Part shown: piece after piece, positions 17,176-58,468 of the stretch | How positions within the stretch are numbered: position 1 is the first letter of the stretch | Layout of the letters: each line of letters begins with the position of its first letter | Sequence record: MT150133.1 | Length of the DNA: 64,000 nucleotides | Origin: Enterobacteria phage vB_EcoM_IME540 | Strand: one strand, 5' to 3' | Translations under genes and position numbers: made by a program | The notes under the pieces: generated by a model | Database searches by the model: none | Seen by the model: the letters and a program-made list of their open reading frames with translations, nothing else | What the model was told of the DNA's origin: nothing

Positions 17176-18194
17176 CGTGTAACCTCATTATAAAGTTGTG
17201 CAGCCATGGTCTTAAGGGCTTTAACATCGTCTTCAGTGTGGCCGTCAGGAAGGGCATCGATATAATCATACATCATATCCAAGAGGGACTTGACTTCATC
17301 TTCCTCTTCAGAATCATCGATATCAACACTGTTATCTACCTTAGACACAATACGTAAAGAATGGACGACCTTTTCAAGCTCTGATTCGAACTTGGTAAGC
17401 CCGTCATCAATTTTATCGACTATAACACGAACCGCAATATTTGTAAAATCTTTGTAATCGATAGTCGCATTCGGATAATGAATCTTACGATGCCAACAAG
17501 TTTCATTGATGATGAAATCCATTTTATGGGTTTCTGTATCGAAAATCCAGAAGCCACGAGGGTCGTTCTCATCACCTGCAGTCAGGGTCCATGGCGTACC
17601 AATATACTTAACGTTTGCTGCATCAGAAATAGTGTGGAAGTGCCCAGACCATACCTGCTTATACTTCTTAAGGAAATCAGGTTCTAAACCATGAGATTTC
17701 ATTCCTTTATAGAAATAGAAACCATTTAATTCCCAGTGACCTATACAGAAATCTGCTGTGGTATTTTTGATATGGTCCATGATATCGGTCGTGTTTTCTT
17801 CACACATCCATGGAATCAAATCAATTTCGGTGCCATCAAAGTTAACCGTAGTGGGTTTCTCAATAACCTTGATATGGTCATATTTACCCAGAACTTCAGA
17901 AGCAGCGTTCGGTGTCAAGGTATTTTTGTAGTGGGCATCGTGGTTGCCTACGACAGTATACATGGTAATGCCGTTGGTTTTAAGCAAATCTGAAATATGT
18001 CTAGCAAATTCCATGCACTTATGAGTAATTGCTTTACGAACATCAAATATATCACCGTACTGAATCCATACAGTAATGCCATTTGCTTTAGAATAATTGA
18101 TGGCATCTTTGATGCCGGCCAATTGGATGTTTTGCACCCAAGGGTCGTCGTTCTTCACTCCAAGGTGCCAGTCACCCGTATTAAGAATTTTCAT
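17172..18194 (-). CDS. 47: recombination nuclease subunit gp47 (Mre11/SbcD-like)
   Basis: phosphoesterase motifs GDWHLG, GNHD, GHxH; start trimmed to MKILNTGDWHLG (T4 MKILNLGDWHLG). Confidence 0.9.
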   Translation of the reverse strand: MKILNTGDWHLGVKNDDPWVQNIQLAGIKDAINYSKANGITVWIQYGDIFDVRKAITHKCMEFARHISDLLKTNGITMYTVVGNHDAHYKNTLTPNAASEVLGKYDHIKVIEKPTTVNFDGTEIDLIPWMCEENTTDIMDHIKNTTADFCIGHWELNGFYFYKGMKSHGLEPDFLKKYKQVWSGHFHTISDAANVKYIGTPWTLTAGDENDPRGFWIFDTETHKMDFIINETCWHRKIHYPNATIDYKDFTNIAVRVIVDKIDDGLTKFESELEKVVHSLRIVSKVDNSVDIDDSEEEDEVKSLLDMMYDYIDALPDGHTEDDVKALKTMAAQLYNEVTR

Positions 18195-18798
18195 TACGTA
18201 TTCGTTCCCACATTTTGGAGGCTGCTTTAGAAGCAGAGCCAGGAAGTTTACCTTTGACCCACCCATCAGGAATATTAGATGGGTTAATCAGTTTATGTTC
18301 TATTCCGTTATTATACCACTTCCTGCCCTTATTATGACTAGATGCTTTATAATTAGGTGAACGACCTTCTACGTATCCTTCCGGGACTGTAGGTGCAAAG
18401 GTTTGTTCCAATGTAACAGGATTATAGGAATGAATATACCCTTTAGCATTATGAGAGCCGTAAAGAGGGTGTTGCTCTTTAGGTAGCGAAAGCCCAAAGA
18501 ATCCTTTAGGAGCTGCGACAGCCCTATTAAAGAATAGAGGATTTTGGGCCGCATCGGTTCTTAACTGGTACATTCTTTCAGCTTCTAAAGCCTCTTCTCT
18601 TGTAGGGTGTTCACTTACAATACACGAGTCAAATAATTCTGGATGCTCTAAAAGCTCATTTTTATAGATTTCTTTATATGCTTTAGAAAGGACACTCCCG
18701 TGATATCCTTTTAAATGCTTCTCTAAAGTGGTAGACCCTATATAAAACGGTGGAAGCTTAGTCCCGGAATATATTGTCAGGTATGTGATGTATTTCAT
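18181..18798 (-). mobile_element. homing endonuclease-like gene (GIY-YIG-like N-terminus, NUMOD3 C-terminus)
   Basis: FYIGSTT near N-terminus; C-terminal KGRKWYNNGIEHKLINPSNIPDGWVKG matches the NUMOD3 DNA-binding motif; occupies the slot where T4 has alpha-gt. Confidence 0.6.
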
Positions 18799-18828
18799 AG
18801 ATTTATTTTATCATCCATTCAGAAAGCA

Positions 18829-18852
18829 AAAAAGGAGCCTAAGCTCCTTTAC
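18829..18852 (-). terminator. intrinsic terminator hairpin
   Basis: minus strand AAGGAGC-UUAG-GCTCCTT followed by TTTTTT. Confidence 0.5.
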
Positions 18853-19070
18853 CAACTAATACACCATACAGAGGTTCATGAGAAGACCTGAACTTAATAG
18901 GCTTATATGTAATAGTACCTTCATTTTCTGCTTTAATACGAGCGGCTTCAAATTGAAGAATCATCTCGTTTTTGTCAGATTTAATCTTATCAAAATCCAT
19001 CGAATTCGTCATTCATACAACCTCTTAAACTTTTTCGTATTCGTCTTTCATTAGCCGCCTGTCCACGTTA

Positions 19071-19271
19071 TCATCGTTGCCACCATTTCTTAAGTTGATG
19101 AGAATCTACCCAAACCTTGGCTACGGGCTCAATCCGAAAAATTCCATCGGAATACTGGCCGACCATTTTATATTCGGTTTCGGACTGCTTAATACAGATA
19201 TTACCGTATGAGCGAAGTCTAAAGGCGGCTCCAATAAGAAGCCGTTTAAAGGGTTTATTTACTAGGGCCAT
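19071..19271 (-). CDS. hypothetical protein (66 aa)
   Basis: ORF on the coding strand downstream of 55; no recognisable motifs. Confidence 0.35.
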   Translation of the reverse strand: MALVNKPFKRLLIGAAFRLRSYGNICIKQSETEYKMVGQYSDGIFRIEPVAKVWVDSHQLKKWWQR

Positions 19272-55829: not shown

Positions 55830-55911
55830 AGGGTTCCTATATTGCTTAAGTCCCAGACAGTGTATAATGGTCCTAGGTCTGTTCCATTCAATAACTGGCT
55901 GGGATAATAGA

Positions 55912-56748
55912 TTAAGAATTCTTCCATACTTTCTGAGCTGAGTAACGCTTACCTTTCGATACAAATTGCTGAAGCGGTAATCCTATTACATTAGCCCAAT
56001 CAGACGGTTTTATCTCTACTAAAGGTCCCTTGATATTTCCAGGGATATAAGCTTTAATCATCACGTCGGCGCCAGCGAATCCTTTTACCTTACTCCAATC
56101 GATTTTTAATTTAGTCGAGTTCGTAATGGTAGGCGTACTCGCGTATTGCTTCAGCAATTCTTCCAGAAATTGTTGACGTGCTTTAGGTGGAATATAGTGT
56201 AAGTTCAGTCCGTACATTAAATTATGCTTACCTAACCCAAGATAAATTATTAAAGGATATTTGTCCCAGTATGGTAGGGTATCCTTATGTTTGGCATCAT
56301 AGATATAAGCATAAAGCTTACCAGGAGACGGTTTAGATACCTGGTGTCCACGAATTCCTTTCTTTAATGTTTCTGTAAACCATTTAGCTGATTTATTGTT
56401 TATGGCAGCGCCTTCGTTAGCAATCTTATCGCGAATACTCTTTCTAAAACTATTCACCAAAATTAATTGACGTTCTGCTTTGGTTAATTTATTGCCAGGT
56501 TTCTTCTGAAGTTTTTCAACCTGTACAGCAGTTTTAATTCGACTCGAGTATCGAGACATCGCAGATGTAAAGCTAGAATACTTGATGCCTTTATCTTCAG
56601 CGAATTTCTTAGCCGAAACACCTTTAGCCTTAGCGTTGGCATATTCAACGCCTAAAGTTATCCATTGTTGTTCTGAACGAGTAGGCTTGGAACCTTTTGT
56701 AGTTTCAGTAGCCTCGTTGATGTAAGAAAATATACTCATCCTTTCCAT
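55912..56748 (-). CDS. 2: DNA end protector gp2
   Basis: 278 aa, syntenic; size matches T4 gp2 (274 aa). Confidence 0.8.
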
Positions 56749-57185
56749 CCTAATTTTTTCAGTGAGTTTTCGGTAATCAATCTGAAATTAATTCCCATTT
56801 TATCTGCTGTAGCTTTAGCAGCTTTCCATTTATCTTTATTTACACTCCATGTATAATGTTCGTTGATATATCTCTTTTTAGCAGCTGTAGTCATTTTAGC
56901 AGGCGCCGCTGGAGGATGGGTCTCTTTAAAAGGTTTGACTTCGAAAAAGAATTGTTGACCATTGTCGAACTTCACCCAGAAGTCCATAAAATACCGACGT
57001 TTCTTTCCATCAGCGTTACTAAAATATGGAATCACAACCTCTTCCGAGTTCCACTGGACGACATTAGGATGGTTATCAAGCCAACGCATAAGCCATGCTT
57101 CCCAAGAGGAACGATATTGGATTTTCTTCCAATCACCTTTATATTTTTGTAAGTTTGTAGGTTTAAATTTCCCTGAGTAGGCCAT
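56736..57185 (-). CDS. 4: head completion protein gp4
   Basis: 149 aa, syntenic; size matches T4 gp4; GGAGGCACTATG initiation region. Confidence 0.8.
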
Positions 57186-57230
57186 AGTGCCTCCTTATAA
57201 ATATTAATATTATTTATACTCGGAGGCACT
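57186..57230. promoter_or_regulatory. divergent late promoter region between genes 4 and 53
   Basis: TATAAATA on both strands (57196-57203 plus; about 57209-57216 minus) flanked by inverted repeat TAGTGCCTCC / GGAGGCACTA carrying both SDs. Confidence 0.55.
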
Positions 57231-57833
57231 ATGCTCTTCTCATTTTTCGATCCCATCGATTACGAATCAAAAACAGTCAAGCCAGATTCCGGCTCATTAA
57301 CTGATGCCGATGTACTGAGCGTACCGATGACTGATATATTTAGAAACTATAAAGAATATTTTGATAAAGTGGCTAAAAATTATACACTTAAAACATATTA
57401 TATCAGTGGGGCCCCTCGTCCAGAAGAATTAGCCCATCAACTTTATGGTAACGTGCAATTATATTGGGTCCTTTTAATGTGTAACAATATCTATGACCCT
57501 TATTACGGCTGGATTACAGGCCAAGAATCTGCGTATCAAGCAGCTATTCAACGTTATGCTACTGCAGGCGGAAACCAAGTCCTTTATCATGTCAATGAAA
57601 AGGGTGAGAAATTCTGGAATCTAGTAAATACTCCGGAAAATCCTTATACTTGGTACGATAAAGGTGATACAGAAAAACGTTATCCTCAATATGAAGGTCC
57701 TTTGGCTGCAGTAGATATTTACGAGGACGCCATTCGTAAAAATGAATATAAGCGCGAAATAAAGATTATAGACCCTAATGACATCGAGTCCTTTGTTTCC
57801 GCTTTAATTAGAGAAATGGAGAAGTCACTCTAA
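57231..57833 (+). CDS. 53: baseplate wedge protein gp53
   Basis: 200 aa, syntenic immediately before gene 5; late promoter upstream. Confidence 0.8.
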   Translation: MLFSFFDPIDYESKTVKPDSGSLTDADVLSVPMTDIFRNYKEYFDKVAKNYTLKTYYISGAPRPEELAHQLYGNVQLYWVLLMCNNIYDPYYGWITGQESAYQAAIQRYATAGGNQVLYHVNEKGEKFWNLVNTPENPYTWYDKGDTEKRYPQYEGPLAAVDIYEDAIRKNEYKREIKIIDPNDIESFVSALIREMEKSL

Positions 57834-58468
57834 TGTTTTATTACGTCTATAAAATAACCAATATAATTAATGGTAAATTTTATATCGGTGCTCATAGTAC
57901 ATCAAATATGGATGACGGTTATATGGGCTCAGGTAAATTAATTAAACGCGCTATACTAAAATATGGCATTGAAAATTTCAAAAAAGAAATATTAAAATTT
58001 GTTGATTCTAAAAAAGAAATGTATGAACTCGAAAAAGAACTTGTTGTCCTTACTGAAAATTCATACAATTTAAAACCGGGCGGTTCCGGTGGGTTTTTAA
58101 AACATGATAACTTTAAAGGCAGGTCCCATAGTCAGAAAACCAAAGATATTATGAGCGCTAATAACTCAGGCAAAAACAATCCTATGTATGGTAGAAAACG
58201 AGACCAACACGGAGAAAAAGCACCTAATTATGGTAAAAAGTGCTCTGAGGCTAAAAGAAAATTACTTTCTGAAAAATCTAAATCCTATTTTGAAAACCTT
58301 CAAACCATAACTAAAAATCTCGGCTTTGGTCCTACATCGGTTGAAACTAGATATGTATCAAGACATATTAAAAAGCTAGGATTAGATTTTTATAAATTTA
58401 ATCGTGATATAACAGAAACTAATGTTTCCATAGTTAGAAATATTTTAGAACAAAGGAAAGCGCTATGA
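57833..58468 (+). mobile_element. GIY-YIG homing endonuclease (Seg-like) between genes 53 and 5
   Basis: YKITNIINGKFYIGAHST...DGYMGSG; shares a nucleotide with the gp53 stop (TAATG at 57833). Confidence 0.8.

Follow-up and report, generated by a model that had tools for sequence, protein, structure and literature searches.

Introduction

Intronless homing has been established for the endonucleases SegB, SegE, SegF, SegG and MobE of phage T4 (PMC2330249, PMC2988022), and the free-standing endonuclease genes of T4 have been described as mostly promoter-less cassettes (PMC2988022). SegB recognises the T-psi-C region of tRNA genes, with GGTTCRANTCC as the core of the site, and cuts after CCAR (PMC2330249). 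The shuffling of domains among homing endonuclease genes (HEGs) has already been described as a general phenomenon (PMC10448857). A census from 2010 listed the phages JS98 and JS10 without HEGs, and reported no convincing evidence of HEG transfer between T4-like genome types (PMC2993671). We have analysed a stretch of 64,000 nucleotides (nt) from Enterobacteria phage vB_EcoM_IME540 (MT150133.1), hereafter called the window, and find in it five open reading frames (ORFs) that are very probably free-standing HEGs of a JS98-type phage, spreading by intronless homing.

The five genes and their surroundings

Megablast searches with four sub-regions assign the window to Dhakavirus, the genus of the JS98 group among the T4-like coliphages. 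The nearest records are phages QL01, IME08, FB and LHE83, with 95-98% identity to the window, and no record in the phage collection spans 80% of window positions 34500-59000. The gene order is T4-like (46, 47, ..., 55, ..., tk, vs, regB, ..., e, tRNAs, 57, 1, 3, 2, 4, 53, 5), and the five very probable HEGs are placed in it as follows:

18181-18798, minus strand: ORF of a GIY-YIG free-standing HEG, 205 amino acids, upstream of gene 47
35387-36124, minus strand: ORF of a GIY-YIG and NUMOD3 free-standing HEG, 245 amino acids, inserted in codon 2 of tk
37856-38590, minus strand: ORF of an HNH (MobD-like) free-standing HEG, 244 amino acids, between regB (38598-39056) and vs.1
51033-51698, minus strand: segB, orthologue of T4 SegB (GIY-YIG), 221 amino acids, 91% amino-acid identity to the annotated SegB of phage PP01
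57833-58468, plus strand: ORF of a GIY-YIG and NUMOD3 (two copies) free-standing HEG, 211 amino acids, between baseplate genes 53 and 5

An earlier sequence-only reading had proposed these five ORFs as homing endonuclease genes lying beside conserved genes, and on these points it was right. All five are present with exactly the coordinates and strands it gave, the neighbourhoods of gene 47, tk, regB (with vs.1 on the other side of the HNH gene), the tRNA pair and genes 53 and 5 are correct, and the homing-endonuclease identity is borne out by PHROG matches of every protein. In the order of the list, these are phrog_10820 with E = 1.5e-92 (and phrog_314 with E = 4.6e-16), phrog_314 with E = 2.2e-27 over residues 1-156, phrog_655 with E = 2.5e-36, a best homing-endonuclease family with E = 1.8e-47 for SegB, and phrog_314 with E = 3.5e-49. 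Four of the ORFs encode GIY-YIG enzymes and one (37856-38590) a MobD-like HNH enzyme.

All five genes have the same orientation as their neighbours, and the four that are not in the tRNA cluster each overlap the start of the gene downstream. We regard the five as promoter-poor cassettes, and their co-orientation matches the account given of the T4 genes (PMC2988022). The content of guanine and cytosine (GC) is 30-33% in four of the ORFs and 39% in the gene-47 enzyme, which is the value of the window as a whole. No sixth endonuclease gene came to light when all window ORFs were searched with the five proteins by phmmer, nor did Pfam scans of the otherwise unexplained window ORFs reveal a further one. 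An Rfam scan at gathering thresholds found no group I intron in the window, the two tRNAs being the sole matches, and the genes are therefore free-standing; that any of them is intron-borne was rejected on this ground and because they sit between genes or at gene starts.

The presence of the genes is sporadic. Alleles without the endonuclease, which the sequence-only reading had suggested looking for in related phages, were found for every one of the sites: none of the five is occupied in JS98, and QL01 is empty at four of them. Each gene has about 3-12 phage records at 80% identity or more, and each family occupies its junction in other genera too, with amino-acid identities of 50-88%. The recoding of codons at the junctions follows the presence of the endonuclease.

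Catalytic residues and enzyme classes

The comparison with I-TevI was made by aligning T4 I-TevI and by fold search. The four GIY-YIG proteins of the window were aligned by MAFFT to T4 SegB, to T4 I-TevI and to two homologues from other genera. The positions of I-TevI Y6, Y17, G19 and N90 are invariant in the four genes as well as in the cross-genus homologues, and N90 is aligned to an Asn, N83 in SegB numbering, that is invariant in the four. A Glu, E67 in SegB numbering, is likewise invariant across the four, and we take it as the equivalent of I-TevI E75 by position and conservation, because the E75 column of the MAFFT alignment is offset by one residue. Pfam GIY-YIG is matched above threshold by SegB (E = 3.8e-5) and by the 53/5 protein (E = 1.6e-5) and below threshold by the gene-47 enzyme (E = 0.0078), while the tk-adjacent protein has no match to it. 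NUMOD3 is matched by the tk-adjacent protein (E = 3.9e-13) and the 53/5 protein (E = 1.6e-11), and is borderline in SegB (E = 1e-3; 19.4 bits against a gathering threshold of 20.4). Three of the five proteins accordingly have GIY-YIG and/or NUMOD3, and the other two have weak matches to GIY-YIG or HNH. Searches of the PDB with the single sequence of the 53/5 protein and with a profile of the GIY-YIG alignment gave no matches.

The match of the 37856-38590 protein to Pfam HNH (E = 0.011) is below threshold. Its motif, HH-x13-N-x8-H-x3-H, can be aligned to that of canonical HNH nucleases of the PDB, and H31-H32, N46, H55 and H59 fall on the HNH motifs of McrA and a group II intron maturase. N46, H55 and H59 are nearly invariant among the homologues of the protein, and its predicted model has a beta-beta-alpha arrangement at residues 29-65 (strands 29-32 and 47-50, helix 52-65). 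The sequence-only reading had named a lack of catalytic residues on alignment as what would speak against it; the residues are present in the GIY-YIG genes and in the HNH gene.

Donor-like patches at three junctions

At three of the loci, 53/5, tk and HNH, the window is donor-like within a QL01-like backbone, and we read these patches as the footprints of gene conversion. The features of these junctions are:

57470-58900, no strand: conversion patch, about 1.5 kb long, with the 53/5 gene at its centre, from sites where QL01 (empty) and FB (endonuclease-carrying) differ
34827-35399, minus strand: tk (thymidine kinase), the likely target, from junction alignments
35379-36490, no strand: donor-like conversion patch at the tk locus, from an informative-site test against QL01 (empty) and ABTNLS3 (endonuclease-carrying)
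37783-38604, no strand: HNH cassette unit, consisting of the endonuclease gene, a segment of vs.1 and the end of regB, from indel boundaries
39085-39112, minus strand: early-promoter-like element (TTTACA-N16-TACTAT) upstream of regB, one copy of a repeat, from a consensus scan

At 53/5 the endonuclease ORF alone has been inserted, between CTCTA and ATGATTAAC. Its ATG overlaps the stop codon of gene 53 (TAATG) and its own stop overlaps the ATG of gene 5 (ATGA). Around it the window is of the FB type at 57470-57827 (11/11 sites) and at 58572-58858 (28/28), with one QL01-type site at 58527, and farther out it is of the QL01 type, at 55957-56431 (29/31) and 59007-59892 (23/23). The same junction is occupied in Gaprivervirus P896, and when this phage is compared with the Dhakavirus KIT01 the nucleotide identity is 98-100% in the 53/5 ORF, against 68-80% in genes 53 and 5. 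An 18-bp duplicated flank at this junction was rejected as a BLAST artefact caused by two similar ATG-proximal sequences, as the base-level alignment gives a precise insertion.

Three further observations were made at or near this site. Two alleles of the 53/5 gene exist there, one of the window/FB type and one of the KIT01/P896 type, with 89-90% nucleotide identity in the first two thirds (the GIY-YIG and NUMOD3 region) and about 74% in the last third (58182-58380). The FB gene (2834-3346 of its locus) is annotated with just 513 bp and is covered by tblastn in two pieces at 100% identity, which suggests a frameshift or a sequencing error. QL01 has an extra HEG between genes 3 and 2 (39117-39767 of its locus) that the window is without (about 55905-55914), so that the gene 3/2 site is polymorphic in the opposite direction.

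At tk, the endonuclease gene is inserted after the ATGGC of tk, and its last 13 nt, which are the overlap with the tk start (35399) noticed from the sequence before, rebuild that start. With the insertion placed after ATGGC, the endonuclease gene itself borrows the ribosome-binding site (RBS) and the start codon of tk. A 6-bp direct repeat, ATGGCA, flanks the gene (35385-35399 and 36119-36124), and the N-terminus of tk reads MASLMF in the window and MAQLYF in the empty alleles of JS98 and QL01. Within the patch 65 sites are of the donor type and one is an exception, and on both sides it is bordered by sites of the QL01 type. This junction is also occupied in Gaprivervirus VR5, in the Klebsiella Roth phages and in Citrobacter phage Moon. 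Phage NC-G has a tk that lacks an adjacent endonuclease gene and yet has the endonuclease-type start (ATGGCAAGTTTGATG, MASLMF); this start and the ATGGCA repeats would make the NC-G tk either a resistant empty site or an allele from which the gene was precisely lost.

The HNH gene is part of a larger cassette. The segment of vs.1 encoding the signal peptide has been replaced and overlaps the 3' end of the HNH gene, and the resulting vs.1 N-terminus differs from that of the empty alleles and resembles that of Klebsiella phage Merci (a Jiaodavirus), in which the regB/vs.1 junction is also occupied and the HNH gene is arranged likewise. On the other side, regB ends with ATT TAC TTG TGA in the two genomes that carry the HNH gene and with ATC TAT CTT TAA in the three that do not, a synonymous recoding of the last three codons and the stop. 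The window is donor-type at 40/40 informative sites in 37780-38607 and QL01-type on both sides.

It might be asked whether some of the five genes are inactive relics, whose intact ORFs are kept for their overlap with, or their contribution to the start of, an essential neighbour. The overlaps of the four genes outside the tRNA cluster with the starts of the downstream genes would fit with this, as would the tk start codon that is supplied by the tk-adjacent gene, the two proteins below the Pfam thresholds and the FB copy of the 53/5 gene that looks frameshifted, and I-TevIII is a known relic in T4 (PMC2988022). The motif residues are however intact in all five proteins and the five ORFs have full length when compared with their homologues, and the three discrete conversion patches together with the two near-identical cross-genus copies point to recent mobility. 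We consider the relic explanation unlikely.

Another explanation is suggested by the early-promoter-like element upstream of regB. A consensus scan finds at least nine copies of this 20-40 bp element in the window (at 676, 29224, 33704, 39074, 41571, 44718, 50008, 53161 and 53729), with the minus-strand form GTTTACA-N16-TACTAT and a resemblance to the T4 early promoter. The copy at 39085-39112 is probably the source of a transcript of the regB-HNH-vs.1...tk unit, which would bear both the HNH gene and the tk-adjacent gene. Promoter and stem-loop cassettes of this kind are reported to mediate shuffling in T4-type phages (PMC2839356), and there are many small indels without endonucleases between the window and JS98. 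The nuclease genes could then be passengers in a general modular shuffling by illegitimate or repeat-mediated recombination. We find this very improbable, because none of the five endonuclease junctions overlaps the repeated element, the insertions are codon-precise and located at the same junction in different genera, and the patches are centred on the endonuclease genes.

segB and the tRNA genes

The GIY-YIG gene that had been noticed between two tRNAs is specifically segB, with tRNA-Arg and tRNA(CAU) on either side, and its product is 76% identical in amino acids to T4 SegB. The module consists, apart from segB, of:

50953-51027, minus strand: tRNA-Arg (UCU), T4/QL01-type allele, downstream of segB (ARAGORN, Rfam)
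51699-51739, minus strand: spacer of 41 nt upstream of segB, identical to that of T4 (alignment, motif scan)
51740-51810, minus strand: tRNA with CAU anticodon, JS98-type allele, upstream of segB (ARAGORN, Rfam)

This is the arrangement of T4 (tRNA-Arg, segB, tRNA-Ile(CAU)). Within the spacer are an AGGAG RBS and CATAAATA, which agrees with the late-promoter box of T4 at 7/8 positions; in T4, segB is predicted to be preceded by a late promoter (PMC2988022). The window and PP01 have a nucleotide identity of 92.1% over 51027-51812, and just 70-81% in the flanks.

The corresponding cluster in JS98 consists of tRNA-Arg, tRNA-Asn and tRNA-Met, and the tRNA-Asn has GGTTCGAATCC, a copy of the published SegB recognition core, followed by a 3' CCAA. 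In the window, segB sits exactly at the position of this tRNA-Asn, which is absent. Judging from the sequences, segB in place of tRNA-Asn would fit with a conversion initiated by SegB. The tRNA alleles on the two sides of segB form a mosaic, in that the window has a JS98-type tRNA(CAU) together with a T4/QL01-type tRNA-Arg. There are two alleles of each of these tRNAs, and all combinations of them around segB or the empty site are found among PP01, T4, JS98, QL01 and the window, a pattern that would be expected of a recombination hot spot. In QL01 a T4-type tRNA-Ile(CAU) directly adjoins a T4-type tRNA-Arg.

The position of segB raises the question of whether the five genes are domesticated nucleases, kept mainly for their benefit to the phage, either by marker exclusion or by amplification of tRNA and anti-defence loci. 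SegB of phage T6 drives segmental amplification of tRNA and anti-defence genes and thereby escape from host immunity, and segB is linked with tRNAs in many phages (PMC13096335). Marker exclusion is documented for Seg enzymes of T4 (PMC2988022). In the window, segB is intact and lies between tRNA genes, and the GC content of the gene-47 endonuclease is like that of its host genome. Against this stands that each of the genes is present in a minority of the close Dhakavirus genomes, with JS98 lacking all five, and such a sporadic presence fits better with selfish elements than with fixed beneficial genes. Domestication as the main reason for keeping the genes is in our opinion possible, although rather doubtful, but a beneficial role is compatible with homing, as both make use of the same cleavage activity.

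The gene 47 junction

The fifth junction is located upstream of a recombination gene:

17172-18194, minus strand: gene 47 (Mre11/SbcD-like recombination nuclease), the likely target, from synteny with JS98 and QL01

The ATG at 18194 is the genuine start codon of gene 47. The sequence-only reading had described the neighbouring ORF as containing NUMOD3 and overlapping gene 47; the overlap stands, and comprises the last 14 nt of the ORF, but the domain does not, as NUMOD3 (PF07460) had no match in the full protein at E<=0.1 or in the tail alone at E<=10. The enzyme takes the place of a small gene in JS98, 47.1, and it was inserted downstream of a terminator-like hairpin and a MotA-box-like sequence that have been retained. 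Codons 3-6 of gp47 are ATT CTT AAT ACG in the Dhakaviruses that carry the enzyme (the window and QL01) and ATA YTA AAC ACW in four that do not, that is, four consecutive changes, all of them synonymous. The enzyme is present at 6/38 gene-47 loci, and the same junction is occupied in Tequatrovirus teqhad and in Marfavirus EI.

Several lines of evidence make this protein a GIY-YIG enzyme. In a family of 39 sequences, Y6, Y19, G21, E74 and N91 are invariant, and 15/39 members reach Pfam GIY-YIG while 0/39 reach HNH. A fold search of the PDB with the AlphaFold2 model (pLDDT 82.8) puts the I-TevI catalytic domain in the first three places, with a probability of 0.95-1.0 and a target-normalised TM of 0.53-0.61, at E-values of only 0.016-0.087. 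The label "HNH endonuclease" that RefSeq gives to the homologues in QL01 and teqhad was rejected on the grounds of the family Pfam matches and the fold search.

A homologue in phage vB_EcoM_005 (749-1360 of its locus, 85% identical) sits about 140 bp farther upstream and does not abut gene 47, so that the insertion point of this enzyme is not strictly fixed. The gp47 of that phage is only 87% identical to that of the window.

A shared C-terminal tail

The suggestion from the first reading of the sequence that several of the proteins share C-terminal tails, and that domains have been shuffled, gained in strength. The genes of the tk-adjacent GIY-YIG protein and of the HNH protein belong to a single transcription unit, at a distance of 1.7 kb, and the two proteins have 35% identity across 85 C-terminal residues (E = 5e-10). 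The core of the tail is formed by the last approximately 45 residues, with three predicted helices and the pattern W-x3-Y-x2-L-x2-LW ... F-x2-IA-x3-G-[YF]-P-[ND]-x2-Y-x-G. No Pfam model was found for it, and a word-indexed homologue search with the short tail alignment gave nothing. When the two tails were used in an exhaustive HMMER search, 78 cluster representatives were retrieved, and in nearly all of these the module is C-terminal. Among 70 representatives that were scanned, 22 have NUMOD3, about 15 a domain of the HNH type and about 8 one of the GIY-YIG type, and the tail is hence found on both kinds of nuclease across the database. Many homologues, in turn, combine the nuclease domain of the gene-47 enzyme with NUMOD3 tails, whereas the subfamily of the enzyme itself has another tail. 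A tail on two nuclease types and a nuclease domain with varied tails together support domain shuffling. The zinc-finger model of I-TevI had no match in the window proteins or in the 70 tail-bearing proteins; its only match was in one remote relative of the gene-47 nuclease domain. Common to the insertion points at tk and vs.1 is CTTTAA followed by an RBS, and this was dropped as a candidate for recognition by the tail, being generic for gene junctions.

We tentatively hypothesize that the tail of about 45 residues could be an unrecognised family of DNA-binding domains of HEGs, and that the recoded pieces at the junctions could be a built-in immunity that marks the cleavage sites. If this is true, the recoded pieces would allow the targets of uncharacterised free-standing endonucleases to be predicted in a way that can be tested directly.

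Other genes in the window

A 567-residue ORF (6222-7922, minus strand) combines, according to Pfam, a nucleotidyl-transferase domain with an aminoglycoside-kinase-like domain, and a nearby ORF of 297 residues (3745-4635, minus strand) is without a Pfam match. We take this region to be the one where T-even phages hold their glucosyltransferase genes, and these two ORFs might, we presume, serve a DNA hypermodification pathway of JS98/RB69-type phages.

Discussion

The mechanism that we propose is the one established for the Seg and Mob enzymes of T4, carried over to the window genes by analogy. A phage with one of these genes would infect a cell together with a relative that is missing it, and the enzyme would cut or nick the DNA of the relative inside or close to the conserved gene that adjoins the insertion site (47, tk, vs.1/regB, a tRNA gene or 53/5). 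Phage recombination would then repair the break with the endonuclease-carrying genome as template, and the endonuclease gene would be copied into the recipient with flanks of variable length. In two of the cassettes a part of the neighbour has been recoded, which would probably shield the carrier genome from cleavage by its own enzyme, and the recoded junctions may in this way confer immunity. Cleavage by the five window enzymes, as well as their target positions and the timing of their expression, are predictions made from the sequence.

Some observations weigh against this interpretation and should be set beside it. No Arg is aligned with I-TevI R27 in the GIY-YIG proteins, and the nearest conserved basic residue is an invariant Lys (K38 in SegB numbering), which follows a Seg-specific insertion; the active T4 SegB is arranged likewise. 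Whole-model fold searches with the HNH protein did not confirm an HNH fold. QL01 is without tRNA-Asn though it is also without segB, and the displacement of tRNA-Asn by segB is for that reason consistent but not proven, and the informative-site test at the segB locus (QL01, LHE83) was mixed, with no clear conversion patch. The gene-47 enzyme has a host-like GC content (39%) and its cross-genus relatives are just 57-67% identical to it; it could have settled here long ago and since lost its mobility. Homing by four of the five enzyme subfamilies is deduced from their sequences and the T4 precedent. We nevertheless hold that the five genes are very probably mobile, free-standing HEGs.

HEGs are a long-known hallmark of T4-like phages, and identical copies of each of the window genes are already in GenBank, but the same combination of five genes was found in no sequenced phage in the collection. 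What is new is the four uncharacterised subfamilies at junctions that are unoccupied in T4, the shared tail without a model and the clear conversion footprints. A JS98-type genome is here found with five HEGs, compared with none in the 2010 census (PMC2993671), and two signatures suggest transfer across genera, that of segB with Tequatrovirus and that of the 53/5 gene between Dhakavirus and Gaprivervirus. The recoded junction codons are concrete candidates for target sites, and homologues of the gene-47 enzyme turn out to be mislabelled in RefSeq. Mosaic boundaries made by HEGs have to be reckoned with in comparing or mixing T4-like phages for therapy, and the window is a clean worked example of HEG mobility in T4-like phages.

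Comparison with known systems

The system most like one of the window genes is T4 SegB (PMC2330249), with which the window segB shares the tRNA module, 76% of the amino acids and the identical spacer. Unlike T4, which has eight tRNA genes, the window genome has two, and their alleles, a JS98-type tRNA(CAU) and a T4-type tRNA-Arg, are a new combination. Like T4 MobD and the Mob family (PMC2988022), the HNH gene encodes an HNH motif at the N-terminus and a long helical region at the C-terminus, and across about 230 residues its product and MobD have about 34% identity. The gene differs in its location, between regB and vs.1, whereas T4 mobD is located between nrdC.11 and mobD.1, and MobD is a protein without demonstrated activity or known target.

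With the Seg family of T4 and I-TevI, the window enzymes have in common the N-terminal GIY-YIG domain with its Tyr, Tyr, Gly, Glu and Asn residues, and the NUMOD3 repeats in three of the genes (borderline in segB). The junctions at 47, tk and 53/5, on the other hand, hold no endonuclease gene in T4, and unlike I-TevI none of the window genes is intron-borne and none of the proteins matches the zinc-finger model. The general picture agrees with that given by Barth, Dunham and Seed in 2023 (PMC10448857), in that the window endonuclease genes lie beside essential or conserved genes, blocks of identity switch at them and a putative DNA-binding tail is common to different nuclease classes; the particular tail of about 45 residues in the window is without a Pfam model.

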